From: Haplodiscus bocki
Lineage: Eukaryota
Length of the DNA: 64,000 bases
Reading direction: 5' to 3'
NCBI GenBank assembly: GCA_965655095.1
Contig: OZ296652.1
Coordinates: 15,004,001-15,068,000 of the forward strand
In this document: piece after piece, positions 3 through 36,253 of the stretch
Layout: each line of letters opens with the position of its first letter
How positions within the stretch are numbered: position 1 is the stretch's first letter
Position numbers and translations under genes: made by a program
The notes under the pieces: model-generated
Told to the model about the DNA's origin: nothing
Database searches by the model: none
Seen by the model: the letters and a program-made list of their open reading frames with translations, nothing else

Positions 3-281
3 AACTCGAATGAGAATTGGCGAAACAATGGAAACTTTTCTCGTTCTCCAGCGACTCAAAGGAGAGACTATTCGCAGAATAGTTCAAATTGCAAATCAAG
101 AAGTGATTGGCCCAACAACTCTGCTTTCCGCGGACGTGACAATCGACCTACGACTAGTTTTACGCCCTATGAACAAAAATTTCCACAAAACAATAATCAG
201 ACAGCATCTAACTTGGTTCGTTTCACCACAACTGACGATACTATTATTGAAATATCAGATCTTTGCCCGTTAAACTACTAA
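3..281 (+). CDS. gag: C-terminus of gag of element 1 (frame 3, N/S/R-rich, ends ...DLCPLNY*)
   Basis: Frame 3 is open from the window start to TAA at 279-281. It overlaps pol in the -1 frame at G_TTA_AAC (269-275). Confidence 0.7.
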   Translation, partial: NSNENWRNNGNFSRSPATQRRDYSQNSSNCKSRSDWPNNSAFRGRDNRPTTSFTPYEQKFPQNNNQTASNLVRFTTTDDTIIEISDLCPLNY

Positions 282-3200
282 GGTCTCCGAACTCCAACAC
301 CGACAATTCTAGAACTTCAAGACTTAGCCTCAATATCTTCTACTTTGCCACCGGAGACACTCAAAAAGATAGTGGCTTGGAGATTGAATTCATGCTGGAC
401 ACAGGAGCATCTTGCTCGATTATCAATTACCGAACTTTTTGGGAAATTTGTCAGTTACAGCACCCAATTACCATACTAAAAAGTACCAAGGTAACGAAGA
501 CCTATTCAGGACAAACAGTTCCTATAATTGGCTATGCAACTATAACTTTTAGTTATGATCCAGACGGACAATTTATCTTCCCACTAACAGTATGGATCAC
601 TGAGATGAGGACTCGGAACCTTCTTGGAATGGACTTCTATCAAAAACAAATTTCTGGAATTCATTTTGGCCTACCTGGGATTGAAATAAAGAATCCTCCC
701 AAGTCAATCTGCTACGGCAGTTTTCATCAAAACAAACCCTATCGTCTTTTATCACAACTTTTGAATTTTAGAATCCCTCATACGATGTATATTGATGCTA
801 AAAGTGCCCGTTGCTGGAAATATTCACCTACAGACACTCGTATACACTTCCCACCTGGCTCTACTTTTCAACCGAATCGAAATGTTGTGGCTACCGGCCT
901 ATCTTTTATAAACACCTTATGCACACGATCTGAAAGTAACCTCCCGATTTTGATGGAAAACAACAAGAACCATCAAATAAAACTACCGAAGGGACGGATT
1001 GGGTTCTCTTCCCTTGACGTGGGTGATCAAGATGAACCCAAATACCAAATACGAAGCCCGTACGAGCTAACGAATGCTATCATCTCTACTGATGAACGGT
1101 ACAATGACTGTTTTCTCCTACATTCAACAGTTCCAGCCCAGAGCAGTGATGAATTTCTCACGATCATCTATGGTAAAGAAGAACCAATTCTCCAACAAGC
1201 TAATTCAATTAGACATTGCATATCCGCGGATGCCCGAATGAGTAGAGGCTTTGCCGATTTTCTGTCCCACAGAATTCCTGGTCTTAGATCGACATGCCGC
1301 AAAGCAAGGCATTTCATGGGACAAGTCTACCCTTTTTGGGATTCAACAGGGAAACGCTATATCTACAACTTGGTGACTAAAGAAAGATTTTGCGATAAAT
1401 CGAATCTATCTACATTGTCTAAAACGTTAGAAGCAATGAAAATTCATGCAAGTATGAATGGCATTTCTACTATTCTACTATTGCTATACCCAAGCTTGGC
1501 TGTGGACTAGATCATATGAACTGGCAAGAAGTTGTGAAACTACTCCGAGATATCTTCGCCTACGCTGATGTTCAAATTGTAGTATACACTCTCGAAGAAA
1601 ATGGAGTTCACGCGCTGTCCGCTGAGGTAGACGCTGAGTTCTATGCTGATGATGAGATAGAACGATACAGTGAAAAATTCCTCTTAGAAAACCGTGAGAT
1701 GGAAACAGACTTCACTAAGGATTCCAAATCCTGCCAACCGACATGTGACTAACAATTCCCAGTCCTCCGCGAGAAACATCACAACGACCGACTCATTGAC
1801 CACTACCTTCAATATCAGCCCAAAGAAATCACAAACTATGTTAAGGATTTCGATTTTCAGTACTCAGACATTACAGATGAGGAAATGATACTCCTGATTG
1901 ATATGCTAGTTGACGCGCGGGATGTTTATACTCAACGATAATTCGATGTGGGCAAGACCCGCCTGAAATTACATGTCACTCTGAAACCTAACGTTGAACT
2001 GAAACGACAATGACCTAGTAAAGTTCCCTCACACTTAAAAGAAAAGTTAGAAAAGCTACTCACACAATAAGAGAACACCGATATCATTCGTGAAATGGGT
2101 GATGACGACAAAATGGGATCGTTATTCGTTAATCCGATTATCCTAATGCCTAAAAACGACTATGTGAAGTTAGTGATTGACGCAAGATACCTCAACTCAG
2201 TGACAGACCTTACGAATTACTCCTGGCCTTTAGAACCAGTGCAGATGATCATGACTCGGGTCAATGGCAAAGTTTTCTCAGTAAGTGATCTCCCTTGTGC
2301 CTATCATCAAGTTCCGCTGAGCTCGGAAACACAAAAACTAACTAGTTTCATAATTGGTGGAAAACAGTACACTTACACATGTGGATTCTATGGGTTATGT
2401 GGACTCCCAAATTTCTGTAGCCGACTAATGACGATTTATTTCGATCAGCTCATCAGGAAAAAGCAAGCTATCACATACATCGATGATACAATGATGCAGT
2501 CACAGAACAAGAACGAGATGTTCACGGTCATCCACGAGTACCATACTCTTCCTCGGAAGGCAGGTCTCAAAGCAGCTCCCGATAAAACATATTTCTTTTT
2601 AAAGAAAGTTAGATTTCATGGTCACGTTATCTCTTCCGAAGGAATTCAACCCATTGCAAAACGCGTGAAAGACTTGAAGAATCTTAAATCACCCGAAAAA
2701 AACGAGATGTCATGAAAGTTATTGGATGCCTTGGATTCTACAGTTGTTATATTAAGAACCTCCATGTGGATAGCCAGCCATTCTATGACTTGATTAAGGA
2801 CTCGATTCCTTTTCAATGGACACATGAACACGAAAAGCTATTCCAATCAATCAAAGATAGGATTAGTGAAGACACTATCCTCGCCGTGCCCTCTACTGAA
2901 TATCCTTTTCATATTCATGTGGACTCATCGAACGTTGGGACTGGTTGTATTCCGATCCAACAGTTCCCTGAGGGAAAACGCATCATTTCCTTCAATTCTA
3001 GAATTTTCGATAAAGCCGAACAGAAAATGTCTACTTTACAGAGAACTTTGTGGAATAGTGTCAGCTCTACTAACTTACGAACATTACATCATTGGATCTC
3101 CTTTTCCTATATATCTATATTGTGATCACAAACCGATTCTTTATCTATGGGGACGTAATGGACAACTATCACACCGCTTCTTTCGATATCAAGTAATCAT

Positions 3201-5755
3201 AACGAAATTCCAAAATCTCAAGATTATCTGGACTCCAGGGTCAAATCTTGCTTTCCCGGATATCCTCAGCCAAAAAGTAACAGCAGAGGAATACCAGAAG
3301 CATCAGCTAAACAACAAGAAAGTACCTAGAAACATCGAATTCTACGATGAACATGGCTCTCCAATCACTTATCGAATTCAACACGATGATAACCCTAGCG
3401 ACACTTGTAATGACTTCTACCCGATCCATTGCCAATAAGGAAACGATAATAAGGTTCTTCGATTGCACAATGATGGTGAAAACTTCACGCTAAACAGCCT
3501 CAGCAACGAGTTTCCTTCAACAACGATAAAATCCGCGACTGACTGTTTCCGACCGGGCAAAACAATCAATCAATTCCGACGCCTATGCCTACCTTCCACA
3601 CAATCCTTGAGCTCCGCAGAAGGTTCTCATCCTACATACAGCTCTATTGATTCGTTGAATACCAGCGAAGACGATGATGCACTAGCCGAGCCCCATGACG
3701 ATGATGATAATCCAATAATCGATGACGATGAAGACAACCTTATTTGTGAAATCAATACACACGCCAATCGTTACAGATTGTGCAAAGCTAAAGCAGCTCA
3801 TGATGTTGTCCTGGGAAAAATCAACGCTTCTTTAGCAAAGAAACCACTAACAGCTACTGAGGCACCGCACTTGGATACCAAGTCGTTAAATGCGAAACTA
3901 GACGATGTTGCTAAAACAATCGATCTTGACATGTCTACAATATTGGCAGAACAGATCAAAGACCCTGTTCTTGGTATAGTTAGATCATGGATCCGAAAAG
4001 GAACTTCACCCGAACCTAAAGATCCTGAGATCCAACAATTAAAAGGACTTTTACGATATTGCCAAGAGTTTGACCGACTTTTAATCGAAGAAAAAGGACA
4101 ACTTCTATGTTACAACGAACCTAAGGCTAAACTAGACGATGAAAATCTACGAATTTGTCTACCCTTATCATTATTCCTAGCGTGTTTCGGACTTGGACAC
4201 TACAACGAAATGGGTGGACACATGGGCACTTCGAAGACTTACAAAAATGCAAAAAGATTCTACTACTGGCCTGGCATGTTTGATTGGATATGTGCACTCA
4301 CTGCTGATTGTCTAACTTGCCAAAACAACAAACCAAAGCCTAAACACAAGAACGAGGTACCATTGGAAGAATGGCAAAACGAGACAGTCCCGTTTCGAAC
4401 AACCCACCAAGTAATCGGAATCTTCATTATCTATTGGTTATAGACGCATTCTCTTGATTCTTGATGGTATATCCAGTTACTAACACTGGTGCTCAGGCTA
4501 CTATCTCTGCTATCGAGAAATGGATCCATTCCTTCGGAATACCTCAGTCTATTGTGCTTGACCGCGGTACGGCTTTCATTAATACCGAATTCATAAACTG
4601 GACAAAAGAATCGGGAATCACTTTACCACCTCGAACAGCGCACTCAACTTGGACTAATGGCAAAATTGAAACGCAGAATCAACACATTGCACGTTATTGG
4701 CGGAACTTCTTGAACGACGCAGGAAACAATTGGTCTTCACTAGCTCCTAAATTTGCTTTTGCACACAACACGAGTGTTAACTACACTACGGGAAGGACAC
4801 CGTATGAGATTGTTTTCGGTACAAAACCTCAGATTCCTATGTCTTTGAAACTTGGACTTTACCGCAATAATCACAAACTTTGCTGTTCCGAATTCTGCAA
4901 AGATCTACCATCTCACTCACACAGTGAGAACAACTTAAAGAATCAGTTTTTAGACAATCTCCTTCGCCCAAAACTTTCACACGCACTCCTAGAACGAGAA
5001 CGCGACTTTAAAAGGATCTATTCTGCTACCTTTGAAAGATGTCGGGAACAAACAGCTAGATCTCATGCTTACAGAAACCGATTCAAACTGGGACAACACT
5101 TAGACATAGGACAAAAAGTTTTTTTCGAAAACCATCGACAAGATCTCTCTAGGAGCCAAAAACTTCAACAAAGACGACTCGGACCCTTTACAGTAAAAAA
5201 AAGAGTAACTAACACAACTTATCAAATTCAAGATGACAAAGATCCTACAATTTCAAAACAGTGCATCGCAATCACCTGGTCGAATACTACCCTAAAGAGG
5301 AAACTCTACCTCCAATGATAGAAGAATATGTGCCCATGGATCGCCGTACTGATGATTTTTACGAAAGATTCGTGGAGCAACGAATTCAAAAGATAAACAA
5401 CCCCGGACAATCTGGCATGGAAGAGTCTCTTCCATTCCCTATTGAACCCCTTCGTACAGCTCCGGTTTCACTTCCACGGAAACGAGTCAGCAATACTAGC
5501 AAATGTTCTGGAGTTAACTCTGCTCATGTCCTATCACCGGCAATGCCAATAACTCCTGATACTTCCCAGCCCCATTTAATACCATCAACTTCGCGAATGA
5601 ATCCTCCTAGCGGACCATTAACTCCCATTCAACAATTCATTAATAACAGCCGTAAATCAAAGAACAATGAACCTAAATACAATCGTTCCCAACCCCTTCA
5701 TCCTGACCCACAGTCGGTGCTTCGTACTCGTACACGACAGGGCTATAAAGTCTAG
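263..5755 (+). pseudogene. pol: pol polyprotein of element 1 (aspartic protease, macrodomain, RT, RNase H, integrase); several stops and frameshifts
   Basis: Protease LDTGAS (~393); RT LVIDARYLN, AYHQV, YIDD (~2475); RNase H HVDSS and YCDHKP; integrase HHCC (GHYNEMGGHMG...CLTCQ), LDRGTAF, NGKIE, GPF module. Confidence 0.95.
1160..1595 (+). CDS. TARG1/OARD1 (Poa1p-like) macrodomain embedded in pol between protease and RT
   Basis: HCISADARMSRGFA...RYIYNLVTKE...LSKTLEAMKIH, then after a frameshift from a duplicated TTCTACTA (~1465-1480) AIPKLGCGLDHMNWQEVVKLLRDIF...IVVY. This matches the TARG1 pattern HCISEDCRMGAGIA...YIYYLITKK...MPRIGCGLDRLQW. Confidence 0.88.
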
Positions 5756-6063
5756 ATCTTGCATCTTTTATAAGACTTTTTATGCTTTTTACTCACCGAA
5801 ACTCCCGTTCTCGAAACTCAACGGCTCCTTATGAAGACTTCAGTATTTTTTTTTCCACATAACCATGCCTAAATGCCATAAAATTTACCCGAATTGCATC
5901 TGGCAAGTTCCAACTGGGTTTTTATTCAGCTCTTCCAACTAAAGTCCATTGCAATTATGCCACTCATAATGTGAGAGTGTGCCGTACACCGATTTCGCCA
6001 AAGACTTCCAAACTGGACCTTACTGACAAAAGTAATCTTCAAGTTCACTTTGGCTCTAAAGCA

Positions 6064-6273
6064 ATGGCGAGTCTGTACGATCTCCTCTGCTATCACTCTC
6101 TTACATCTACGGATCCACTCCTCGAAGAATTACTTGCTTATCTCTCCACACGTTTCCAGTCTCATATCTTCGACTATATCACCTATGAACACTCCTCAGA
6201 TGATGAATCAGTTCATTCAATCGACTCTTCAATTTCTGCATTTTATTCCGACAATTCGACTTACTTTTCTTAA
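6064..6273 (+). CDS. Small acidic/Ser-rich ORF of unknown function after pol
   Basis: ATG at 6064 within ORF 5971..6273 (MASLYDLLCYH...); no recognisable domain. Confidence 0.3.
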   Translation: MASLYDLLCYHSLTSTDPLLEELLAYLSTRFQSHIFDYITYEHSSDDESVHSIDSSISAFYSDNSTYFS

Positions 6274-6398
6274 CAACTTTTATCTCTTCCTTTTTTTTAT
6301 GCGACTCCAAGATTTTTAACAACACCACTGGGTACAAAATATACAAAAGGGCCGCCGGCCGAGAGTAACCGACGACGCAGAAGGAGGGCCCAGAAGCC

Positions 6399-6998
6399 CT
6401 ACAATTCTAGAAGGCCACCAGACGCGGCGAGCAGCTCCAACTGCTCCCGCATTTCCTGGACAGTCCGGGCGGGGGACATCCGGAGCCACTGCCGGCGATC
6501 AAAGCTGGTCAAAGAATTATAGCCAGCGAGGTAAGCCCTCAGCTTACAGATGAGGACCTCCCCCGCTGGCTGAGTAAACTTCAGCTCCCACTGGTGCCCC
6601 CATACGAATTTTAGGAAAGTTTTGAAGTTAGCCGAAATCTCCGGTTCCTCTAGACGTAAGTCTGGAGTACCCCGGAGACTTTGGGCTTTCACCGCCCACT
6701 GCTCTAATTCTGTAATGTCGTCGGCCGAAAAGAAATCCATAACGCTGGGGGCGTCCCCAAACTGCGGCTACGGAGACCCTGGCCCCGGCCCCGGCGAAAC
6801 AGCAGGCGAAGCAGCAGGAGACGGCTCTGGCGACGAAGGAGGAGACGGGGACGGAGACTCTGGGTTATCTGCGGGAACAACTTGAACCTCTAAAGAAATT
6901 TTGATTGGCTGGGGAGCAACGACGCCTACCACCACCTCCTGTTGACCCACTTCGACCTCCTGGTCTGATAACTCTTCATAATAGTCCTCGCTTTCCAT
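6399..6998 (-). pseudogene. Antisense accessory ORF (~200 codons; acidic N-terminus, P/S linker, globular C-terminus) with one in-frame TAG
   Basis: ORFs 6768..6998 and 6399..6740 share a frame and are separated only by TAG (6768-6770). GC-rich island. Splice-acceptor-like TTTTCTTGTTGTAG|G precedes the ATG. Confidence 0.6.
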
Positions 6999-7434
6999 CC
7001 TACAACAAGAAAATTTCAGAAAATGAAACTACGACCCGCCTGCACTTATCCCGACTCCTCTTTTGGATGACTTTGTAATATCTCTTATTCCTGTTGCTTT
7101 ACACCTTTCTGACTCCTAGTTTCTTCAATGGATCTCTTGAAATCTTCTTCTCACCCGAACCAGACTCCTACTCTACCCTCGAGACACCTATTTCTACCCG
7201 GAATGCCCTACTACGATGAATCGTAACAGAACCAAGGAAATAAAAGAAGGAAGAATGAATGAAGAACGCTCATCTGATAATTCTTTTCATTTTATTTTTG
7301 TTATAAATTTTTGTTCTACTTAATCAAAAATTTCAAAAAAAAATCCTTGTTATATATTAATAATTTATAAATATTGCATACTCGAAGAGCAATGAAATAA
7401 CTGATGACTTCGTTCTCAGATTTGCTATGAATCG

Positions 7435-7656
7435 ATGTATGTGAAAAATGACGGACAATTAAAAACAATCCACAGAATTGAGCTGAAGTCCGATTCAAAG
7501 ACGATTCTACTGCATATTGAAACTGAAACAGGGACAGAAGAAGTGTATAACTGCCCTTCTGAATCACCCAACTATTATCACTTGCGCAAACTTCTTTTCT
7601 CAGAAGTCAATATTCCTAGCGACATTTTTTGTGGAAACGAGATTTTCATTATTTAG
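7435..7656 (+). CDS. 73-aa accessory ORF A (paralog 1)
   Basis: ATG...TAG, 222 nt; motif YNCPSESPNYYHLRKLLF shared in pattern with the next two ORFs. Confidence 0.65.
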   Translation: MYVKNDGQLKTIHRIELKSDSKTILLHIETETGTEEVYNCPSESPNYYHLRKLLFSEVNIPSDIFCGNEIFII

Positions 7657-7878
7657 ATGACACTCACTCTTCTGAATATTGACAATCAACACCAAATAAT
7701 TTTGAGCATTGCCTTCAACTATATCACTGAAGAATTCAGAGTCATAACCGAGTCAACTAACGACGATCAAATAACAGCCTTCATTTGTACTCCTGGATCA
7801 TCTCACTATTCATTCATCGAAACTTTATTCAAAAATCCACCTCCAGTCCTGATCAAGAGTCAAGACGGGAAACTTTAG
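7657..7878 (+). CDS. 73-aa accessory ORF B (paralog 2)
   Basis: ATG directly follows the previous TAG; 222 nt; FICTPGSSHYSFIETLFKNPPP. Confidence 0.7.
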   Translation: MTLTLLNIDNQHQIILSIAFNYITEEFRVITESTNDDQITAFICTPGSSHYSFIETLFKNPPPVLIKSQDGKL

Positions 7879-8100
7879 ATGACAACTATTTTCCTCGATA
7901 TTAACGGCAAAATCTACATTATCAAAAGCCTAACTTACAACATTACGACTGAAAGTTACAAAAACGACACGGAAAAGCTTGAAAATTGGGAAAAAGTTAC
8001 TTTTTCTTGTCCTTCAGAATCTACAAATTTCGCATTTACTGAAGGCCTATTCAAGAATAATCCCCCAATAAAGATTGTTAGCATGTACCACACGATTTGA
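7879..8100 (+). CDS. 73-aa accessory ORF C (paralog 3)
   Basis: ATG directly follows the previous TAG; 222 nt; FSCPSESTNFAFTEGLFKNNPP. Confidence 0.7.
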   Translation: MTTIFLDINGKIYIIKSLTYNITTESYKNDTEKLENWEKVTFSCPSESTNFAFTEGLFKNNPPIKIVSMYHTI

Positions 8101-8119
8101 ATAATTAACAATTCACTGA

Positions 8120-8503
8120 ATGAAACCGGTAGAAATCATTTTAAATCGACCTGGTGTTAATAGGACGCATTTGAGAGCTGACATTCGCTGCAAGTGGACA
8201 CCATTTTCTCTTCAAGGAGAACACTTAATAACTACATTCTTTTGGATCCCGGACGGAAGTCCTTTACAAGTCAGATTGCGGGTTACTGAGAATCTACTCG
8301 CAATAATCCTTATTCCCATAACAGTTCAAACAGAAGAGTTCGCCAAACTCTTTTTGACTCTAAAAATTTCCAGGACGCTGGATAAGAGAGAAAAGCAAAG
8401 CTTGGACGATCTTCTGGATTATATGGACAAGAACCTTGGGAGATTTAACGAGGTGTCCCACAACAATATCCTGGACGATCTTGTTGATCTATACGACATT
8501 TGA
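8120..8503 (+). CDS. 127-aa accessory ORF D of unknown function
   Basis: Intact ATG ORF starting 19 nt after ORF C; protein-like composition. Confidence 0.6.
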   Translation: MKPVEIILNRPGVNRTHLRADIRCKWTPFSLQGEHLITTFFWIPDGSPLQVRLRVTENLLAIILIPITVQTEEFAKLFLTLKISRTLDKREKQSLDDLLDYMDKNLGRFNEVSHNNILDDLVDLYDI

Positions 8504-9166
8504 ACTTAACATCAAGTGCCTGTGGCAGCATCCTGCTACGAGTAGTCATTTGGAAATCACAAAGATCGAGTGGAGCGAAAAAACTGACCCAATTTTAATA
8601 ACAGCCCACAGTCTGAGACAACTACAGCCTGGAACATGGAAATTTTCCATTAAACCAGGGACTGAAGAGTTATGAAATCTCCTCTCATCCCTGCAGGAAT
8701 TCACGATAATCCCGCAATTCAGAAACACTCATCCTCTGACCAGATACTTAGTCAAACAACTCATACGTCAGTGTCAATCTTCAACCTCAGACGATCAAGC
8801 AACAAGCCCAAAACGCAACAAAACAAACTACGATTAACGAAATCCAATGGTTGAGGTGAGTTATATTTAAAAGTTCAATTTGGCACTTTTTTGGTGATAA
8901 CGGTTCTATTCCGGCACCCTTTATAAAAACCTCGCCGTCATTTTATTAGTAGTGGAGCTACTACTATAAAATCTTAGCTCCCACTTTTTGTTAGTGCTCA
9001 CAAAGCGCCGGTTTGATATTACGGCATTTTTCAATAGCTATTCCTCCAGAAAAATAGAGTGAACTTCCACTGGGAAACCCCGTGAAGACGCTATATTCTT
9101 TTTTTCAATAGTTATTCCCGCCGAAGTAAAATACCAGAGATGGAACTTCCGCTAAAAAGTCCAGCG

Positions 9167-11319
9167 ATGACGCTATTTTTTTTCAATACCTCGTGTTTTG
9201 TTCCGAGGTTACTTCCACTTTAGTTCCAGATGCAGATCAGGTTGCCAAGAATCTTAAAGTGTCTCACTTTGGCTGCGGCGCAAGGACAGAAAACACTCTC
9301 TATGCTCTCAACCAGGTACAGCAATGTCACAATACACCGGAGGAACTGGAAATTAGTCAGACGAAAATCATTCTCTACACCAAGCATTTCCGAAAAGAGC
9401 TTAATGCAACAAAATGCCGAATACAACATCAACGCGAGAAGTGGCACTGCGGACATAATGACCACAGCAGCATCGACCACACTGTAGCTGGAATTACTAG
9501 CGACTTAGTAATATCACCGAAACAATGCCGATCTCTCGCGAATGGGAAATCAATCTATCTGACTGATCAATTCTTGGCAGTTGAGTACGATACAAAGGAT
9601 CCTATTGTTAAGACTGACGGCTCTACAAGCGATAGTGACAGAAACTATTGCAATGTACGTGGATGGATTACCCGCGATACCTTCGTACCTCACATGCAAC
9701 GAACGACATTGAAAGTAAGAATGTCAACTGAGAAAGTTTTATCCGATTCCGCTCAAGTGCTGCCATGTGCATTGGAAGAACTAGGCTGTGAGACGACTTC
9801 GCTGGAGCCCTATGCTTACATATGGGACCACCCGGACGACTGTGTGTTATCAGTCCTCCGAACTGAAGATGTGAACATGGTGAAACAAAGAACAAAATAA
9901 TATATAACCAGTGGACCTGATTCAACAACTAAATTTGTGTTCGAAGTCAAGAACAACCCTCAAAAACATTGTGGAAAACCGACAGATATTTATCAAACTA
10001 ATTACGATTCACTATACGTAGCAATTATTAATGGAGGCTTCGACCTGAGATCTGGACGGAACCTTGGTAAAGAACGGAATGGTGCTACTCAACTTTTATA
10101 GTATATACCACCCACCGAGATCAATGGATTTGCTCAACTCTATGCATATGATCCAAAACACACATTCCACAAAACAAGCGATGAAGATATGTATCTGAAT
10201 ATGGACTATGAAATGCACATGGGAACAAAATTGGACTATCTCTTCTTCCAGAGCTCACGATTACTTCAAGCTTCTGAGATACAACTATTGAAGAACCAAT
10301 GTGAACAAAAACGAACGCAGATTCTCACTATTTTGATACTATCTCTTGAAAACCCACGTATCGCAGGCAATATGTCAACTGGAACCCGGTCAATGTTTCT
10401 GGAGACTGATGGCAGCTTAGCTTGGTTGTATCACTGCCCACTAGTTCAGTCACCGCTTCATACCATGAACCAATGTTATGATCGTATCCCAATACTCTAC
10501 GAGGGCTAAATCCAATTTGTTGATACTATCACACGACAAACACATCTAGTAGCTAACATACAAAATTGTACCGATCGGATAAAAAATCTATTTCAATTCG
10601 ACATGGATCAAGAGGACTCGTAGTAAACACTAACGCCTGGCATTGTACACCAGGATAGACCCGCTGTGTTCGGGCCTAAAGGCGTTTCACCAGTAGCAGT
10701 TCATTCTTTTCCTGGATCCCAAGATGCTCGAATGGACACTAGAAGCGAACTTAGTCACTTTTGGGACAGTATCTTGATCAGCGCTGCCCCCCGAAAAGCT
10801 TTAAAAAAGTTTTCGCAGAAGCTCAGTGTCTTTTCAATCAACAACAAGAGCCCGGACAGTTTTCCCTATTAAGCTCCCAGAACAGATTTCTTCGTGGACA
10901 ACATGATCTCACCTGGATATTTCAAAGATCGGTTTATGGATACATATGGACCAGTCGCCTACGTTCTCGAACACTGTGGAGTCTACTTCTCTGTATTTAT
11001 ATCTTTTAAACTCTTAATAGATGTTGTGAATATGGTAATACGCCACTCGGAGATAACTAAAATGACTGGCGAATCACTCAGGTTCGGTAACACCCTTCCA
11101 AACGCCTCATATAATATTTTTCTCATGTCAGTTCTGACTTCAAGGTATGATCCGCGCGCGCCAACACTTGCAATGGTAGAAGAAGAAAGAAAAACGCTCT
11201 GTAATGAGGAAGAATTGCACGATATGAGAGAAGATAACAAAAAAAAGGAAGAGCACATCTATCCTGTAATGAGTCCGGCTCGATTTAACCAGGCCGTGAC
11301 AAAAAATTCACCTGTTTAA
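9167..11319 (+). pseudogene. env: env-like glycoprotein resembling chuvirus G / class III viral fusion proteins
   Basis: ORF pieces 9193, 10189, 10666 and 10894 are all in one frame, separated by stops. Cys-rich ectodomain (KCRIQHQREKWHCG, CEQKRTQ, AWLYHC...CYDRIPILY, FVDTITR), C-terminal TM (VYFSVFISFKLLIDVV), and a putative signal peptide from ATG 9167 shifted by a T-run. Confidence 0.8.
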
Positions 11320-11369
11320 TTTTGTCCTATTTATTTTTGAAGCCCAATTACACTCCGTTTTTCTCCCTT

Positions 11370-13259
11370 GTGATGATTGTCTTTCAGTCCTCTCCGATCC
11401 AGAAGACGACTTCCAACCCCCTACGCCTTCTGGTTTGGATCTCCCCACTACCTCTGTCGTCACCTTTCTATCTCCTATCTGGCCTCCCGCGAAAATACCT
11501 TCTAATCCAGCTTCGCCTGACGAGACGCCTGCTTCACCTTCACAACCTACTAACAATCCCACAACTACAGTCTCAGACGTCGCTTCTCCCCCCTCAACTG
11601 GATTACAGTTCTCAATTTCGCTCCGTGAAAACAATCAACCTAAACCTACAGACGGACTTCCTCCGTTTAGCTCCTTCCTATCTGACGTTCGACCCCTTCT
11701 CTCGCGCCCCAATCGTCTCGAACTTCAGCCAGATCAGTCTATTCTTGGACGCCAACATCGCCGTGAATAATATACAAACCACACACGCAGAACAAAACGA
11801 CCCCGTTTCGATCAGAAATTACAATACAGTCTCAAACAAGATTTCTCCACATGGGAAATAATCTTTTGGGATAGCCGACGCCAAGAATACACAATTCAAA
11901 GCACATCTCTCCCTTCTCAACGATTGGTAGTTCCTCCACAGGCGATCACTGCATTTCCCCGCTGATGTCGCTAAACCCTCCGGCGCCAGCCTTCCTTCCT
12001 CAATTTCAAACTTCCTATGACCCACCTACTTCACTGGGCAACTCTACTACAATGAGCTTCCCCTTGGCTCAATTATTTTGCAGAATGCCTCCACAATTCT
12101 TTCCACCTCAGGCTCCTTCTATTAACCATCACATCACTGATGGCACGTTCCTCCTCCCTTCTCTCCAGCTGACAAGTCAGTCTAAGCCGAATGCGGCAGT
12201 TCATCAATCAACTCCTGAATTTTCAGCTCTTTTGTCTTCACCTCTACTACATCAAGCTAATTGTCTCCAGGCTATTCAGAAGACTGTCCAACAGCTTAAC
12301 CAACAATTGAAGGCAGAAAACCTAGACAGACAGGCATTACAACTCATTACCCTTCAACTGCAAAATGACTTCGCCTTATTGCGCTATTTGCTCTTCTCCG
12401 ATGAGGATACTGCCGCTACAGACTTCGCTCCCAGTCCTCTCATTAACCCTACCCTAACCCTAACCCTACTTCTTCTGCTTCCATACTACCTTGCACTGAT
12501 GACGCAAGACTTCGTCATTCTACCCCGGTGGGCGCTGTGGGACCATCCAGAGCGAAAACAAACAAATCTGCAAACGCTGATTTCCAACCCCCACCCAAAA
12601 CGCAGGAAGTTCCTTCAACTGCGGTGCAGAACCTCGCATCTAGAATTGGTAAACTTGAAAAAATGTTCGCCGATGAAATAACAACGTACACATCCATCAC
12701 TGCGGGGATCCATTCCCAATGTTTTTTCCTGTATGATAAAATTCGCCCGCTTGAACCCGGCAATTCAGATGCTATCCTCTGGAAAATTCCCTAAGTGAAG
12801 TTTGTCTTTGACTCCGCAAAAAAAACTCAACCATCATCTGACCCCCTCATTGAACCGGCAACAAGTTTTAGTAGTCCTATCTTCAGGACTCATCCCCATG
12901 GATACCAATTTTTCATCAATTTCTATCCTTATGGTATTGGACCCGCTACGGGCAAGTGTGCTTCAATACTATTCACCCTCTTCCCTGGCGATTACGACAA
13001 TCTCCTCAAATGGCCCTTCTCAAAGCTCATCCACATTGGTATTCGAGATCAACTAGACCCAATGAACACCTGGATGAAGACAATCCAACAAGATCAAGAC
13101 CCAGCCTACAAGAAGCCCACAATGTCAACAAAAACTGAAGCCGCAATAGTCCTAATTAATAACTTTATTCCTCACTCCAAACTCTTTAGCGAAACTGAAG
13201 GTTTTCTAATTGATGGTGCGAGTTTTATAGAGATCAAATTTCTGACCCTCCTGTGCTGA
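11370..13259 (+). pseudogene. TRAF-like gene: P/S-rich N-terminus, coiled coils, C-terminal TRAF-C (MATH) domain
   Basis: ILWKIP...FSSPIFRTHPHGYQFFINFYPYG...ASILFTLFPGDYDNLLKWPFSKLIHIGIRDQ...YKKP...FIPHSKL...FLIDGASFIEI is the canonical TRAF MATH pattern. In-frame TAA at 12792-12794; frameshifts upstream; start approximate. Confidence 0.88.
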
Positions 13260-13327: not shown

Positions 13328-13338
13328 TGAGCGGGGTG
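13328..13338 (+). promoter_or_regulatory. Polypurine tract of element 1
   Basis: GAGCGGGGTG directly before AGTTAT and just after the last ORF. Confidence 0.6.
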
Positions 13339-14894
13339 AGTTATCGCGTTACACATAACGCTTAAACGTTAATTGAAACATGATTAATTAATTAAAACTA
13401 ACCTTTCTGAGGGGCAGCAGGAATATTAGAAAGAAATGTAAAAAAGCTGTTGGAATAAAAGGAACCGTTGGAGTTGCATGAATATTTTTTATACAAAAAT
13501 TTCTAACGAGAGTTTTTTTCCTATTGGCTCCAGCTGCCAACCAGGCATGGTAAAATTCAATTTTTATTGGTGGCATGAAATGGCAGCATGCTGTTGTTTT
13601 GGAGTCGATCTGAGGAACGGACTCGATCATTATTCACTTTCCCGTTTAAGCGGACGGGACTCCTTACTCCTCTTCTGACTTGCTTTACTTTACTCTCCTT
13701 CTTTACTTGGACAAAATTATTCTAAGTCCAACTCTCTCTCCCTTTTTGCCTTTTTGGACAAAAATTTTCTAAGTCCAAAATTCTCTTCTCTCTTGGACTA
13801 TAATTTTCCAAGTCCAACTTCAATTCTGCAAAAATATTCTAAGACAATTTCAAGTTGTGTCTTAGTCAAATTCCAATTCCATCTCATCGAAAAAATTGTA
13901 AGACCATTCCAAATTCTGACTTAGTCAAATTCCAATTTCATTTCAACAAAAATATTCTAAGACAATTTCAAATTATGTCTTTGCTAAATTTCCCTCTTGC
14001 TTACTTACTCTATACTCTTGCCATCGGGGTATAAACGGTGTCCACTGATGCTAGCTTCGGTAATAACGTGTACGGATTCCGCTGACGAGCTCCGGTTCTG
14101 AAGCATGAGTGGATCTTAAACAGCATGACCACCTACGAGGTTCCTAGGCAAAGAGAATTGACATTACTCATAGATCAAATCTCACCTCGTCTGCTTCCGT
14201 GGTCTTTAGAAATTATTCTAAATTCCGAGTTACGGATTAAATACGCAGAAACCGTCCATTCCTGATTCAAATAATTCCATTTTTTACATTGATTTCAAAT
14301 TTTCTCATTCAATTTCTTCGCAAGTCAGATCCATAAGAGGAGAGTCCCAGAGTTACCCGCAGATCATCCAACTCCATCTACGGTATCTGTTAGTCAAAGG
14401 GTTTCCTAGTTCAGAATGAGTATATCTCTCTGATCAGTTCTAATATTTTATAAATCCCTTCCGTAAAATCCGCTAGATAAAACTCTCGGTTGGAAAGAAA
14501 GGGAACTAAGAGAACATTACCAGGTTGCCGTTATGAACGAGCTTTCGTCTGAGTACTAGATAAAATCTAAAACAACACAAACCCCACCAATAAATCCGCT
14601 GGTTTATTCACGGTTTGGAAATTCGGGGAAATCAAGTAGGAAAACCAACCCGTAGACGGCGAATTGCCAGTTACGGAGTGTAGACAAAAGACTAAAAGTA
14701 TATATATGACATAAGATTAACAGCTAAGGAAAAAGGAATTGACGAAACTTAGCTCTATTACTGAAATAATGCCAGAAAAATAGAAGAACCAAGTTCTTCT
14801 TCCTGGCTAAAATAAAAGAAACATTAGCCTAGATCATTCTATCGTTTGTTAACATATCCAAAAAAAAATTGGGAGTTTCCTTTCTTTTATAACT
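13339..14894 (+). repeat. Putative 3' LTR of element 1 (~1.55 kb, AGTTAT...ATAACT termini)
   Basis: Begins AGTTAT after the PPT; inverted ATAACT at 14889-14894 (alternative at 15075-15080); non-coding; contains AATAAA. The 5' LTR is not in the window, so this cannot be confirmed. Confidence 0.55.
13707..13990 (+). repeat. Array of palindromic repeats in the LTR: 3x TTGGAC-N13-GTCCAA, then 3x ~59-bp units with a CTAAGAC...GTCTTAG-type stem
   Basis: Hairpins at 13707-13731, 13754-13778 and 13793-13817; units start at ~13831, ~13891 and ~13949. Confidence 0.85.
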
Positions 14895-17303
14895 ATCGTA
14901 CATTTTGGTCTTTTGAAAATTTAACGTCGGTTGTATTTTGGATGGATTTCATTTACAAATCTGTAAATCTTTATGATTTTTAAATTTAATTCAGATCAGA
15001 TTCTAATCCTGATCTTTTCTGGATATTACTCCTAATAAATCTTCGCGAACGCTGAGCTGGAGTAAAGGAATTTTATAACTTTTAATAATTCTCCAGTAAC
15101 TGCTGTTGCTAATATTTTGACGGGGATATTAAATTTCTTACCATCTTCATTTCTAGCACGGAGACGTCAATTAACTACCCTATGGTGCAGTCTCTTTTTC
15201 TCTTCTATTGCACATAGCTACCTTTTTTTGTGGCTGACTGAATAATTGACTATTTCATTTTCTATCTTCCTTTCATCGCTCGCAAAGTCCTTGCTACTGA
15301 ACTTACGCACTTTTTGTTCGCGGAGCCAGCAAGGCAAGGAAACAGAGGGATAAGAGCTCTAGAAACTCGTTCTGGTTATTAACAAAATAATTCAAGTGTG
15401 ATGGCAGCTGCCTGAATGGCGCCCGGTCACGCACCATTTTAAATGAGAAAGAAAATTAGAATTAAAAAATATTACCAATTTCAACCTCTATCTCTCTCTT
15501 TTTTTTAACTACCATGCTCTGCGACAGTACCAAAGAATAGGCAAAAAGGAACATGAACGGTATGACTAATAATATCGTGTCCCTGGTGGGCCGTCAAGCA
15601 AATTTAACAAACTAGCTGGAATTGCCAGTTCGGCAGCACTGGAAAAGCTGTAGCAGGAAAAGATCTTGATAATCCTTTAACCCTAAAACTCCAGTTCGAA
15701 CTACTAGTTGTCAATACTTTTAGACTTAGTGTCCGCAGCCGTACCTTGGAGCAGTTTTATAGATCTTTTAAAGGTACCAGCGTTACAACAAGGAACAACG
15801 GGAACACTCCAGCTCAGGTTAATATAAACAGCCGCAGCTTAGTGTGTGGTTATCATGACCAATATAAGTCATCACCAGGTAAGTAGTCAACGCAGGGTTA
15901 TGAATTCGTTAGACTTGCAACAATGGGCGCGGTCATCTGCCGCTCTGTGGTGCGCCTCTAACAGAAAGTTACAAACGTGATCTCTGCCACAGACGGTCCA
16001 AAAACTGCAATAATGGTACTTTCGGAATTGCCTCTATTTTCCTGAACTATAAACAGAAAAGGAAAAATTTCACTAAGCCGCAAAAAATGTGGGACATTGT
16101 CTCACAACATTATTAGCTGAATTTGATTGTTTTTTGGGTTCAAGTTAGTGCGGAGATTCGTCGTGAAATGTTGAGTTTTCAGGTAATGGGCTCACCGTTG
16201 ACATGTATTGTAACTGTCAGGGCCTATCAATAAATGTCAATCAAAATAACAGTGCATGAGTAAACAAAAACAATTTCAGCATGGGTATTTCATGAGGAGT
16301 CCGAAACCGAGCGGAAGAGTAATTTTGGCTTGAAATGGGCTCAAGGAACTAACGATTGTGAAAAATATTGATTCCTGCTCTTTTTGCCTGATTTTTACGT
16401 CGTCGTAACTTGAACCAGTTTTTAGCAGGTTTGCCATTGTCCATATTGTTTAGATTTGTGAAATGCATGTTTGAAAAACTAAGGTCCCGAACCAATCGAA
16501 TCCACGAAATGGCAATGTGAAATAGGAAAGTTCTGCGAAACGCCAAACTGAGTAATGCATCTGCAAGAAAATTTTGAGGTCTTTCAAGCAGTTTGTTACA
16601 TATGGCAGCTGATGGTGCCCCCTGTACTTTTCTGCAAAGGGGTAAGATGAGCATGATGTGTCTTTAGGGTCACGCTGGCACTTAGAAGGCATTTGTTTGG
16701 CGACTGCAGGCCCATGGTTTTCTGAGTTACCCGGACGCTCGATAGTTATTTGAGACCAAAGGATGTGAAGCTGCTCCCCAGTTTCATGAACAATTAACAA
16801 GCTGAGCCTTTGATTTATGCACCTCTCGGGCAACTGCCAGAAATCTAGTTTCCAAGACGTGGCCCATGTTTGTTATCTTCCTGATTTTTAAGGCTGCATG
16901 ATCATGCGATAGGGAGCAGTATACGAAGTCTGAAGAGGATATTTTGAAAAATTTTAGGGCAAACTATTAACTAAATTAATTGATTTCTGACTGATGGTTA
17001 AATAATTTTTATGTGAAAAGCCATGAAACAAGTTTTCGGGTTCGACATCATTCGCAAATCCACACTCGAGTTTCGCTAGTGAGAAAAAAACATTTTCAAG
17101 ACAGCTGCCCGTCCTCTTCTGAACAAACAGATATACATACCACTGAAAAAAGCAAGTTTCTCATAAATATCAAAGCTAAATGAGCGTTTTCGGAAATTGG
17201 GCATTTGCCTCGTGCCTTTCCAATTACTTCTATTTATCTCTACACTAATTCTCAACGCAATTCAGGACACTTTGTACGACAACACCATTGTTGATTTCGC
17301 TAT

Positions 17304-28595: not shown

Positions 28596-29397
28596 TATGC
28601 ATTTTTTTCCTGAAACTTTGTTTATCATCTCAATCATAACATCAGTCTTCATTAAGTAACATCAGGAATATTATAGCATATAGAGCACATACAAATTTTT
28701 ACCAGACACCTTTACCGAGAAAGCTAGGTCAGTTATCGAACACTAAACCTAAAGAAAGCACCTACAACGGACTTCGTTTTGTCAAACTTAATTTTGTTGT
28801 TTACTAGCATACATCACCTTTAGCACTAACGGTTTCAATATTGATGCGCCTATAGATTTCCATTGAATCCTTGCAAAAAGCTGTATTAACAGTACTTTCG
28901 AACTTCAGTTTTGAATTGCATAACTTTTTCTGGCACTGTTCCAATCACTACAAAATTGAGCTGATTGGGTAGATCCAACTTTTGAGTCTCACTGGAACGT
29001 CTGGATACCCTCCCCTGATCTTGATATTCAGATGTGGGAACTTTAGACGTTTGGTCTTTTGGCAAGAATTAGTTGTCCCAAAAAAACCAGCATGGATTTA
29101 CTTGATTGCCTGTGCCATTTGCATTGCAGAGACAAACAAGGGGCACGCTTTTGTAACATAGCTACTAAAGTGAACATTTTTGCCCTATATTCATTGGCCT
29201 GGCAAAAAACTTTATTCATTTGCTGACATACACAGTCAGGTCCAATAACTTGGACAAAATTATTTGTTTTGTAAAACTCTGAGACTTTGTAATGAAATCC
29301 TTCCTACAATACTTTCTCCCGAGAAAAAACTGTTTTCTAAAACAAAATCAGAATGAATATATCTTCAAAGAGAAATATTTTCAGGATACTTCTGCTT

Positions 29398-32300
29398 TGT
29401 TTTGCGCAACTGCCCTCCCCATCACCGTTTTTTTCTTTTTCTTTTTGCTATTGAGGAAGGCATCATGTGATTTTTCAAGCAATGTCCGGATGATCTTTTT
29501 TTTCAGTGCATAACTGAAAATATTCTCTCACTCCAGGCCCTATGTGATTATCCTTGAAGTTTTGCCCAATTCCATTCGCACAAGTACTCTCTGATTGGTC
29601 ATTTTCTCGCATCTGGGTGCCTTTTTTTGCTCAACAGTAAAAACTTGAAAAAAACAGGAAAAAAATACCAGAAAACTAGCAACCTTTTGTTATTTGAAAA
29701 CATTTTTTTCATTATTAGTCCAACAACAGCAATTAAGAGTGAGCCAGCTTCAAGCAAGGTCCGGAGTGGTCCAAGAACAGTAGGCCCTAGTAGGAGGAAT
29801 GAAAATTGTGTCTCCGGGCATTTCTGTAATTTTCCATACTCTGTCAGACCCTAACCATTGAACAACAAATTCAAACCGTCAATTTCTGTAGCCGCTGTTT
29901 GACATCCTAGTTTTCCTTGCGAGACGCTTTTCCAAGAAAAAACAGAAACGGTATGCGGTTTCTGCCACCAAAGTATTAAAAGCAAATGACCCGAGGTAGG
30001 AAATGTGGGTACTTGAAACAAGTTTTCTTCAAGGATGGTAACTGTTTCTTGACTAGCCACCATTCCAACGTTATCAAAGTGACGCACATGATGCACATTG
30101 CAAGCACATCCACCTCGTAGCATGTTCTCGCTGGAGGCCCAACAATGCGCTGTTCGTCTCTTATGTTGAAAATTTATTTTATTTCCTAAACCGTTTAAGT
30201 TTCCTCCATCGAAAGTAGAGAAGACCTGGGATGCGACACATACACCCTTCCCGGAATCACAAATGGTTTTTTCCATATATTTCACCAAACTAACAACAGG
30301 CAGCCGTTCTGTAGTTCGTGCCATTTGTTCAAAATGATACACAAAATCGATCTGCGATAAATTCATTGCGTCTGATAACGGTTCATTCACGTTTGTTTTC
30401 GCAACTGCCCTCCCCATCGCCGTTTTTTTCTTCGTCTTTTTGTATTTGAGGAAGGCATCAGGTGATTTTTCAAGCAAAATCCGGATGATTTTTTTTTTCC
30501 AGTGCATAACTGAACATATTCCCTCACTCCAGACCCTTTGTAAATATCCTTGAAATTTTGCCCAATTCCATTCGCTCAAGTACTCTTTGATTGGTCATTG
30601 TCTCGCATCTCGGTGTCTTTTTTGCTCAACAGTAGAAACTCGAAAAAAACAGGAAAAAAATACCAGAAAACTAGCAACCTTTTGTTATTTGAAAACATTT
30701 TTTTCATTATTAGTCCAACAACAGCAATTAAGAATGAGCCAGTTTCAAGCAAGGGCCGGAGTGGTCCAAGAACAGTAGGCCCTAGTAGGAGGAAAGAAAA
30801 TTGTGTCTCCGGGCATTTCCGTAAATTTCCATACTCTGTCAGACCCTAACCATTGAACAACAAATTCAAACCGTCAATTTCTGTAGCCACTGTTTGACAT
30901 CCTAGTTTTCCTTGCGAGAAACTTTTCCAGGAAAAACAAAAACGGTATGCGGTTTCTGCCGCCAAAGTATTAAAAGCAAATGACCCCAGGTAGGAAATGT
31001 GGGTACTTGAAACAAGTTTCCTTCAAGGATGGTAACTGTTTCTTGACTAGCCACCATTCCAACGTTATCAAAGTGACGCACATGATGCACATTGCAAGCA
31101 CATCCACCTCGTAGCATGTTCTCACCGGAGGCCCATCAATGCGCTGTTCATCACTTATGTTGAACAACTATTTTATTTCCTAAACCGTCTTAGTTTCTTC
31201 CATCGAAAGTAGAGAAGACCTGGGATGCGACACATACACCCTTCCCGGAATCACAAACGGCTTTTCCATATATTTCACCAAACTAACAACAAGCAGCCGT
31301 TCTGTAGTTCGTATCATTTGTTCAAAATGATACACTAAATCGATCTGCGATAAATTCATTGCGTCTGAATACGGTTCGTTCACGTTTGTTTTCGCAACTG
31401 CCTTCCCCATCGCCGTTTTTTTCTTCGTCTTTTTGCCTTAGAGAAAGGCATCATGTGATTTCTCAATCAATGTCCGGATGACCTTTTTTTCCAGTGCATA
31501 ACTGAACATATTCTCTCACTCCAGACCCTTTGTGAATATCCTTGAAATTTTGCCCAATTCCATTCGCTCAAGTACTCTTTGATTGGTCATTGTCTCGCAT
31601 CTCGGTGTCTTTTTTGCTCAACAGTAGAAACTTGAAAAAAAACAAGGAAAAAGGTACCAGAAAACTAGCAACCTTTTGTTAAATGAAATCATTTTTTTCA
31701 ATAATAGTCCATCAACAACAATTAAGAATGAGCCAGCTTCAAGCAGGATCCGGAGTGGTCCACGAACAGTAGGCCCAAGTAGTAGGAATGAAAATTGTGT
31801 CCCGGGCATTTGTTTAATTGTCCATACTTTGTCAGACCCTAACCATTGAACTACAAATTCAAACCGTCAATTTCTGTTGCCGCTGTTTGACATGCCAGTT
31901 TTCCTTGCGAGACGCTTTTCCAGGAAAAACAAAAACGGTATGCGGTTTCTGCCACCAAAGTATTAAAAGCAAATGACCCGAGGTAGGAAATGTGGGTACT
32001 TGAAACAAGTTTCCTTCAAGGATGGTAACTGTTTCTTCACTAGCCACCATTCCAACGTTATCAACGTGACGCACAAGATACACATTGCAAGCACATCCAC
32101 CTCGTAGCATGTTCTCACCGGAGGCCCATCAATGCGCTGTTCATCTCTTATGTTGAACAACTATTTTATTTCCTAAACCGTCTTAGTTTCCTCCATCGAA
32201 AGTAGAGAAGACCTGGGATGCGACACATACACCCTTCCCGGAATCACAAACGGTTTTTCCATATATTTCACCAAACTAACAACAGGCAGCCGTTTTGTAG

Positions 32301-35190: not shown

Positions 35191-36253
35191 TTTAACCCTA
35201 CCCCTTAAGTTATGATAGGGGAAGGAATCATCCTGTTGCCTGCCAACATTCGTACCTTCTGTTATCTAACTTTTTGACAGATGAATTTTTGATATCTTGT
35301 GTCAATGGCTAAAAAAAACAAGTTTTGGCAGGAATTGGAAACTCCCTTTGAGCAAAATTTGGAGGATTTTCTCGGTTCTCTGGTATCTTTTTTCGGGTTC
35401 CAGGCTCTCTAACCATGGAGTGGCCTAAAATCTTGGCATATGAACTTGTTTCATTACACGCAAAAGCGTAATTCACATAAAGCTCTTTTTTTGAAAAGAA
35501 AAATCACTTGAACCATATATTTACCAGTTCAGTTACATCATGAGATTGCCTCATGAGGCATGATAAAAATCATGATACGCTGCTTAATCACCCATTGTTC
35601 TTTATATCATTCTGGACAGCTTGTTCCCAATTTGTTATAATTTATTGAAACATTCAGTTACCGGTACTCACGAATTTGGGGCAAAAAACAGCCTTACATT
35701 GAAACCACTGCGGACAAAGGACACAAAAACTCACTTTCCTCACTTTTTGCCGACCTGCAGCCTTCGTTTGTACTTTCGGGAGATTTTTCGGTCTTCTTTG
35801 ATGCAGTGGTTGTCGAACATTTTTGCCCATACAACAATTTTTTCCGGCCTTTTTGAATCATTCTACATGTTGCTCAAGTTCTGTTTCACTCCGCCCAGTA
35901 ACACAAAAAAAACGATGGAGTAGTGTATGGACACGTTTGGAAGGCCATGAACTTTGTTTCTTTGAGCATACTCGGGAAACAAAAGTTGAGAACTTGTCTT
36001 TTTTGCAGGTCAATCTCTAAGAGCTTAGCTTCAAAGCCAGCGATCAAAGCTGGCCCGTCGGTAAGGGTTATCACCGTATGAACTCACAAACAAGGTCGAA
36101 TCATGAGTGAGGTCTGAATAGTCACACAAAAACTTACCATGTTCGGAACAGAATTAGTTGAAGGCCCCTTTAGTAGGAAGTTAACCAACACTTGAAAACT
36201 ATGAAGTAGTCTTTCTGAAAATTTTGAGTGATACCCACAATCAGCAATGATCT

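Follow-up and report, generated by a model that had tools for sequence, protein, structure and literature searches.

A RING-less TRAF gene carried between env and the 3′ LTR by four families of Ty3/gypsy elements

The element and its last two reading frames

The window, by which we mean the whole 64,000-bp stretch analysed (G000:C5:15004001-15068000; genome searched, 1.5 Gb), contains most of a 19,638-bp (19.6-kb) Ty3/gypsy element with an env gene, whose 5′ end lies upstream of the window and whose 3′ end lies inside it. The 5′ LTR (G000:C5:14999889-15002072), the primer-binding site (PBS) and most of gag precede the window; the 3′ LTR (13342–15526, + strand as are all coding features below) is 2185 bp long and has the termini TA...CA. 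The two LTRs are 98.6% alike (27 mismatches in 2186 columns); a 4-bp target-site duplication, GTAC, flanks the element on either side and directly follows the 3′ LTR; the PBS begins with TGG; and a polypurine tract (PPT; 13329–13340, +) shows the same motif that stands ahead of the LTR in sister families. Together, these features fix the limits of the element at 19,638 bp and thereby place the MATH gene discussed below inside it. A guessed tRNA pattern gave no match to the PBS. The LTRs start with TATCG instead of TG in two of the families described below (A and B), and with TGTCG in most copies of the other two (C and D).

Inside the window, the element opens with the 3′ end of gag (1–282; the gag of a sister copy matches Retrotrans_gag at E 1e-5) and continues with pol (251–5755), in the order PR-RT-RNase H-integrase with an SH3-like tail (PF13650, PF00078, PF17919, PF17921, PF00665, PF24626), which in this copy is disrupted by stops and frameshifts. 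A pol–env spacer with short extra frames (5756–9139, no strand given) has no assigned function, and three of its frames, taken from sister copies, matched nothing in Pfam at E ≤ 0.01. The env gene (9140–11319) encodes a mononegavirus-type (Monjiviricetes) fusion glycoprotein of class-III type; it is broken in the window, where its pieces match PF24664 at E 4e-9 and 2e-7, and a 734-aa open env frame of another copy matches the same model at E 6.5e-35. Elsewhere in the window we observed six tandem units of about 995 bp each (29274–35193) and a 521-aa open frame (41263–42828) that weakly matches DUF659 (E 0.01) and may encode a DNA transposase.

Between env and the 3′ LTR, an earlier note on this DNA had described one captured TRAF gene at 11370–13259. 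Its place after env (PF24664) and inside the LTRs is borne out, but a single ORF was rejected because the interval joins two frames: ORF-X (11342–11965, including 11370–11962) and a TRAF ORF, the last of the element, that begins at ATG 11965. The window frame of the latter stops at 13259, 70 nt ahead of the PPT at 13329, in agreement with the distance first given; in stop-free copies the ORF encodes about 430–465 aa from its Met onward and stops about 30 nt short of the PPT. Like this ORF, lentiviral nef is an accessory frame that lies behind env and ahead of the 3′ LTR, probably on a spliced RNA; the likeness is one of position only, with no relation in sequence or fold.

ORF-X encodes about 207 residues rich in Pro, Ser and Thr, usually lacks a Met, and ends in a stop that overlaps the TRAF ATG as TGATG (11963–11967), a junction of the termination–reinitiation type. 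The start motif was found in 55 of 63 loci examined, and the overlap is present at every locus of families A–C that has the motif (26/26 A, 12/12 B and 6/6 C; 44/44), with TAATG replacing TGATG in five family-A copies and ATGA in family C; in family D the overlap is uninformative, as codon identity alone produces it and only a short frame precedes it. The frame upstream of the TRAF ATG extends over 194–254 aa in 15/26 A, 12/12 B and 4/6 C loci; such frames mostly have no Met and mostly begin right behind a T-tract and AG. ORF-X is a probable spliced exon, starting in sister copies from the T-tract and AG, and we infer a spliced RNA that would carry ORF-X and TRAF as two ORFs. Stop–start overlaps of the same forms (UAAUG/UGAUG and AUGA) mark termination–reinitiation in SART1, influenza B BM2, caliciviruses and CHV1 (PMC2699510), whereas the junction described here, which may act in the same way, sits behind env in an LTR element. 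ORF-X gave no Pfam match at E ≤ 1; its C-terminal part gave a weak lead to ETS domains (Atlas 0.82, below the trustworthy level) that Pfam does not confirm.

The TRAF ORF contains, after its N-terminal peptide, two coiled coils with approximate borders and a TRAF-C/MATH domain. Coiled coil 1 (12235–12405) is placed by alignment to the host FPL-x-N-x-K-xx-QYLH helix, and coiled coil 2, the TRAF-N stalk (12610–12765), by helix 2–47 of a structural model; TRAF-C/MATH follows at 12766–13245, and the Pfam TRAF/meprin MATH model PF21355 matches at 12795–13256 (E 8e-18). The window copy is broken by a linker frameshift at about 12370–12450, an in-frame stop just ahead of 12795 and, late in MATH, a frameshift at about 13220–13240. 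An AlphaFold model of a naturally open copy consists of helix 2–47 followed by a MATH sandwich (mean pLDDT 82), and its best Foldseek matches are TRAF1/4/5/3/2 (E ~1e-11), with TRAF1 on top; the MATH fold of the element protein is thus predicted to be intact. In its TRAF-N coiled coil followed by a TRAF-C/MATH sandwich the protein conforms to the TRAF1-6 family; it departs from the usual TRAF in that RING and zinc-finger Pfam models found nothing in 3/3 full open-frame copies at E ≤ 1, a RING being absent from TRAF1 as well. The MATH domain, a coil and the absence of a RING, all seen at first reading, therefore stand, except that the coiled coils number two and not one.

Four families of elements and selection on the TRAF ORF

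A MATH search of the whole genome returned 4006 first-look candidates, about 4,000 and not to be read as copy numbers, of which 150 were scored and were all at least 84% identical. Among 29 other top loci, 16 have a stop-free frame of at least 430 aa and 13 have no full open frame, a share of open frames that is biased upward because the loci were ranked by similarity. Searches with more distant proteins recovered three further families (B, C and D). An LTR start lies right behind MATH in 30/30 family-A loci and the PPT–LTR motif behind MATH in 23/25 B/C/D loci, and the MATH–PPT–LTR junction is spanned by 40/40 scored DNA matches (out of 2476 candidates). Upstream of MATH, env was found in 8/8 B/C and 5/5 D stretches, and pol, where the upstream stretch was examined, in 7/7 B/C and 4/5 D. 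LTR pairs are 94–99.6% alike in 8/9 family-A elements and 97.9–99.9% alike in 9/12 B/C/D elements, with no pair detected in the other three; such likeness implies that all four families replicated recently. The proposed linkage of the TRAF segment to this kind of LTR element thus holds: the segment is neither confined to the window copy nor situated outside the LTRs.

Three other arrangements were observed. At G000:C11:46.66-46.68 Mb (L045, L046), a family-A MATH is paired with a family-B-type env, which points to module exchange between families; at G000:C4:103.37-103.40 Mb, tandem units of about 1.8 kb each carry a family-D TRAF frame, most of them stop-free; and at G000:C1:162.18-162.21 Mb and other places, MATH matches spaced about 17.6 kb apart suggest tandem elements with common LTRs.

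Selection was assessed by pairwise Nei–Gojobori dN/dS, calculated within families only, as dS between families is saturated; the values are approximate, because the pairs have common ancestry and open copies are favoured. MATH gave 0.17 in family A (13 open copies), 0.17 in B (10) and 0.14 in C (5), 0.15–0.19 across 19 full elements of families A–D, and values down to 0.08–0.12 on the deepest within-family pairs; over six disjoint family-A pairs, 107 of 650 synonymous against 94 of 2176 non-synonymous sites differ (Fisher p 4e-22). The coils lie at 0.10–0.29 (coiled coil 1, 0.10–0.29; coiled coil 2, 0.25–0.27), the linkers at 0.27–0.64, and ORF-X at 0.48 within family A, with RT (0.01–0.08), integrase (0.05–0.12) and env (0.08–0.17) as controls. 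The dN/dS check proposed for this gene hence returned purifying selection, with MATH at 0.14–0.19 inside families.

These ratios bear on the idea that the TRAF gene is a neutral passenger, or a gene domesticated by the host, and of no use to the element. The broken window copy and the 13 of 29 top loci lacking a full open frame would suit a passenger, but dN/dS is far below 1 in four families and lowest on the deepest pairs, open frames occur in elements whose LTRs are at least 99% alike, and the position ahead of the PPT is fixed. We regard the passenger reading as largely refuted, with hardly any probability left to it, and are close to certain that the TRAF ORF is a selected accessory gene of this element clade.

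Between families, identity falls from RT (87–94%) to env (53–76%) to MATH (41–52%). Judged by these figures, MATH is under strong constraint inside families and has made large jumps between them. One role that could be imagined for such a protein is in the particle or in trafficking, as a matrix-like protein or an adaptor joining Env tails or Gag to membranes for cell-to-cell transfer: the TRAF always stands behind env, MATH domains bind the cytoplasmic tails of membrane proteins that form trimers (PMC6125299), and env is likewise under purifying selection. Yet in one copy a family-B-type env accompanies a family-A MATH, and the distances between env families are out of step with those between MATH domains, which argues against tight Env–MATH pairing; we consider a role of this kind quite improbable.

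The donor gene and remodelling after capture

Element copies filled the results of an initial homologue search, and a search of 50%-identity representatives yielded RING-less proteins with the element's first-coil motif. The genome has two host RING-less TRAF genes, at G000:C5:9.06 Mb and G000:C5:50.42 Mb, interrupted near the end of MATH by GT-AG introns (186 and 349 nt) at a site where the element copies read through; no pol or env was found in three 10-kb stretches around each gene. An upstream exon of one of them opens with Met and, as read by eye, continues into the first half of the lone TRAF-type zinc finger; it matches the start of the full-length relative P0317. Named relatives of the donor are the Convolutriloba macropyga proteins XP_075250303-5, from which we conclude that the host of the element is probably an acoel; the element protein is 28–30% identical to them. 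The architecture of the donor lineage comprises one zinc finger, two coiled coils, MATH and no RING; RING and zf-TRAF models matched neither XP_075250303-5 nor the other full-length relatives.

A tree of MATH domains with 55 rows was rooted at its midpoint; its element branches are long, and it contains neither human nor Burro rows. The 15 element-type domains (9 taken from loci, 6 from unplaced proteins) group in a single clade (100/99) that falls on the same side as the RING-less acoel-type proteins; 24 canonical TRAF domains, among them a RING-type TRAF of C8 represented by its last exon only, are split from these (98/91). The phylogeny thus groups the element domains beside RING-less acoel-type TRAFs and not beside canonical ones, and together with the host introns it upholds the description of the gene as captured and intronless. 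The RING-bearing C8 TRAF was rejected as donor, being 23% identical and grouping in the tree with the canonical domains; at G000:C8:58.44-58.45 Mb (L051-L054) lies a canonical zinc-finger TRAF gene rich in introns. Proteins of unplaced origin sit between the host and element rows. These intermediate rows include the P0294 cluster, P0214, P0275 and P0265, intronless RING-less TRAFs of which one belongs to an 18-member cluster, and which may be captures in other acoels.

We read these data as a single capture from an already RING-less, TRAF1-like acoel TRAF lineage. Since the intron is missing from the element copies, the capture passed through spliced RNA; and since the host donor genes themselves have no RING, none was lost on capture. 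With human TRAF1 the element protein has in common a RING-less coiled coil and TRAF-C, and we claim no TRAF1 orthology. Comparison with the acoel RING-less TRAF, in contrast, shows an element form without zinc finger or introns, with a PAM2-like peptide at its N-terminus and with a rebuilt β6–β7 groove; the finger was lost and the peptide gained after capture.

The groove is where TRAFs contact their receptors, β3, β6 and β7 being the hot spots (PMC6125299). By alignment, the host RING-less TRAF keeps the β3 Arg/Tyr and the β7 N-x-S-V-G (N-x-S-x-G), as does TRAF1, whereas the element families have K/Y, R/H, Q/Y and N/Y (A to D) as their β3 pair and have replaced the β7 motif by four unrelated sequences; the element protein thus departs, as far as alignment can tell, from the hot spots of TRAF1/2/3/5 (β3 Arg/Tyr, serine finger, β7). 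The TRAF-N stalk has only 2–5 of 25 residues identical to the host and keeps its heptad pattern. On the evidence of the alignment, the β6–β7 groove of the element protein is rebuilt, and differently in each family.

The N-terminal addition, which the earlier note had not remarked on, lies at 11965–12000 in the window. PAM2 motifs are defined by a hydrophobic residue at position 3, N/S at 4, P/V at 5, A at 7, F at 10 and P at 12 (PMC2854688), and the TRAF ORFs of families A–C begin with a peptide that conforms to this definition, whereas those of family D have no such motif. All six positions agree in 36/42 loci having the start peptide (47 examined), positions 3–5 and 8 having been part of the pattern by which loci were selected; Ala7 is found in 41/42, Phe10 in 40/42 and Pro12 in 41/42 loci, and positions 6, 9 and 11 differ by family. 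The Pfam PAM2 model matched three of four N-terminal 25-mers (E 6e-4 to 0.015; 15–19.8 bits, below the curated cut-off of 20) and gave no match to the fourth. Shuffling produced the motif in 8 of 20000 trials, and 0/12 host-type proteins contain it. As family D lacks it while its MATH is under selection, the motif is dispensable. The genome has an MLLE–HECT gene, and an MLLE search found the HECT-linked domain only, with no MLLE of a poly(A)-binding protein (PABP).

A PAM2 arm invites the proposal that the protein works on the RNA side, the three arms of a trimer gathering PABP on element RNA so that translation is raised, or deadenylation and silencing are shielded against, with MATH acting as the trimer or as a binder of Gag. 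The conservation of the key PAM2 residues in families A–C and their absence from the host donor favour this proposal, as do the action of PAM2 proteins in termination and deadenylation (PMC2854688) and the apparent need of the TRAF ORF for termination–reinitiation; but family D, which is young and widespread, has no PAM2, and a groove that diverges between families faster than env better suits a conflict facing the host than an unchanging partner belonging to the element itself. Such a scaffold is, in our judgment, unlikely.

Possible function and parallels in other parasites

The uptake of a TRAF by a retroelement is of a known kind, as MATH_TRAF_C of Burro and the RING-bearing TRAF of megalocytiviruses demonstrate. 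Burro and GYPSM1 are gypsy-type LTR elements of planarians, present in thousands of copies, with MATH_TRAF_C and a mononegavirus-like env, and for Burro interference with apoptosis and ubiquitination in the host has been proposed (PMC6431247). The window element does not conform to the Burro description: it measures 19–20 kb against more than 30 kb; its env and TRAF are separate ORFs after pol, whereas the env of Burro stands between gag and pol, and its MATH, accompanied by BIR, BCL2 and ankyrin, is part either of a gag-pol polyprotein of 4,900 aa or of an accessory ORF upstream; and it has a last ORF of its own, two coiled coils, a PAM2-like motif, a stop–start junction and a traceable donor. 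A search for long polyproteins (859–2450 aa) with the element MATH found none, a weak result given that Burro-sized proteins exceed this range. ORF111L of the megalocytivirus ISKNV is a host-derived viral TRAF with coiled coil and MATH, linked to TNFR death signalling (PMC3352826), and BFVD matches to the megalocytivirus viral TRAF reached E 3e-10; in contrast to the element protein, it belongs to a large DNA virus, carries an N-terminal RING, and is reported to bind TRADD and to promote apoptosis, not to serve as a decoy (PMC3352826). What differs here is the position, the independent ORF, the identified RING-less donor, the PAM2-like arm, the stop–start junction and the groove remodelled family by family. 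Among titles and abstracts, with most subscription papers and Repbase outside the scope, we found neither a description of the present element family nor a PAM2-like arm on a TRAF-type adaptor.

Two further carriers of the host TRAF lineage came to light. A JGI contig, Ga0224499_10000023 (L117; 10001–11080 and 12813–16557), is gene-dense, apparently intron-less and resembles a large DNA virus; its genes include one for a RING-less TRAF that falls in the acoel-type clade and has the host groove motif intact, along with two other MATH proteins, an IAP (BIR and RING), a kinase and an Hsp70-like ORF, and we infer its viral nature and its host. A scan of viral contigs with P0225 found nothing. TRAF domains hence stand beside anti-death genes in other parasites, both in Burro (PMC6431247) and in this contig. 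The genome itself also contains a second repeat family with decayed copies of the host TRAF (G000:C3:129.36 Mb, C3:33.49 Mb, C2:131.02 Mb, C6:7.80 Mb and C10:61.98 Mb; L093-L112), which are 29–49%, mostly about 40%, identical to P0317 and closer to the host than is the LTR-borne form. These repeats are often large palindromes with two outward-facing TRAFs 2–3 kb apart and have no pol or env match; L093 is split where the host gene has its intron, and the other copies are ambiguous. Uptake by a virus-like contig and by a second repeat hints that the host TRAF lineage matters in conflict between acoels and their parasites.

In respect of the pathway affected, acoels are reported to be without TLR, MyD88, IRAK and NF-κB, and also without complement, and the sensing of parasites in them is an open question (PMC12849515); the text supplements of that report contain no mention of TRAF. 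Our search of the genome for the NF-κB/Rel family gave no match, the control query having matched nothing either. One TNFR-type cysteine-rich exon, the only one found, lies at G000:C1:50853914 (L141) and makes TNFR-linked interference possible.

The earlier note had proposed a decoy of innate immune signalling made from a TRAF fragment deprived of its RING. Several of its supports do not hold: the donor genes were already RING-less, so that no truncation into a dominant negative was needed; the presumed TLR/NF-κB target is reported to be missing from acoels (PMC12849515); and all four families have other residues at the groove positions that the host conserves, as would not be expected of a like-for-like decoy. 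Taken together, these points make a simple TLR/NF-κB decoy unlikely. In its classical form, in which the protein competes for the receptor tails of host TRAFs or poisons their trimers and so silences receptor signalling, the decoy can draw on the TRAF1-like architecture without ligase, the nef-like position, the TNFR-type exon, the heptad pattern kept in the stalk, and the host-like RING-less TRAF, groove motif intact, of the virus-like contig. Against these stand, besides the donor and the reported pathway losses, the loss of the groove motif and a stalk with 2–5/25 residues identical to the host, and we rate this form as having a rather low probability.

The TRAF has been kept working through many rounds of spread while its binding surface was rebuilt, which leads us to think that the elements probably manipulate the cells of their host with its help, by a route other than Toll/NF-κB. 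Our leading, still tentative reading, to which we give a little under an even chance, is that of a re-targeted host-interference adaptor, whose MATH domain binds a host protein that the PAM2 arm ties to PABP or UBR5. The TRAF ORF would be translated from a spliced subgenomic RNA by termination–reinitiation after ORF-X, and its product would trimerise via the TRAF-N coil; the rebuilt MATH surface would bind a host signalling or defence protein, likeliest one in TNFR-linked death or stress signalling and not in Toll/NF-κB; the PAM2 arm would link that partner to an MLLE-domain protein, either poly(A)-binding protein or a UBR5-type HECT ligase; and the partner would be diverted or degraded, which would favour the survival of the element in the cell. 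A more specific and bolder version, which we regard as having a minor chance, is an adaptor of the degrader type: MATH would pick out a defence protein and PAM2 would recruit the MLLE of a UBR5-type HECT (or of PABP) as an E3 in place of the missing RING, and the independent taking of the same TRAF by LTR elements, a virus-like genome and a second repeat family would mark it as an antiviral hub of acoels.

To our knowledge, retrotransposons rarely carry host-derived accessory genes with a nameable donor. Here, a single genome reveals donor, capture route, selection and subsequent remodelling, in four families and probably thousands of copies. The PAM2-like arm would connect TRAF-type adaptors with poly(A)-binding protein or UBR5. 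That several genetic parasites have copied one host TRAF points to a concrete node of parasite sensing in acoels, and this TRAF offers a ready bait for pull-downs.
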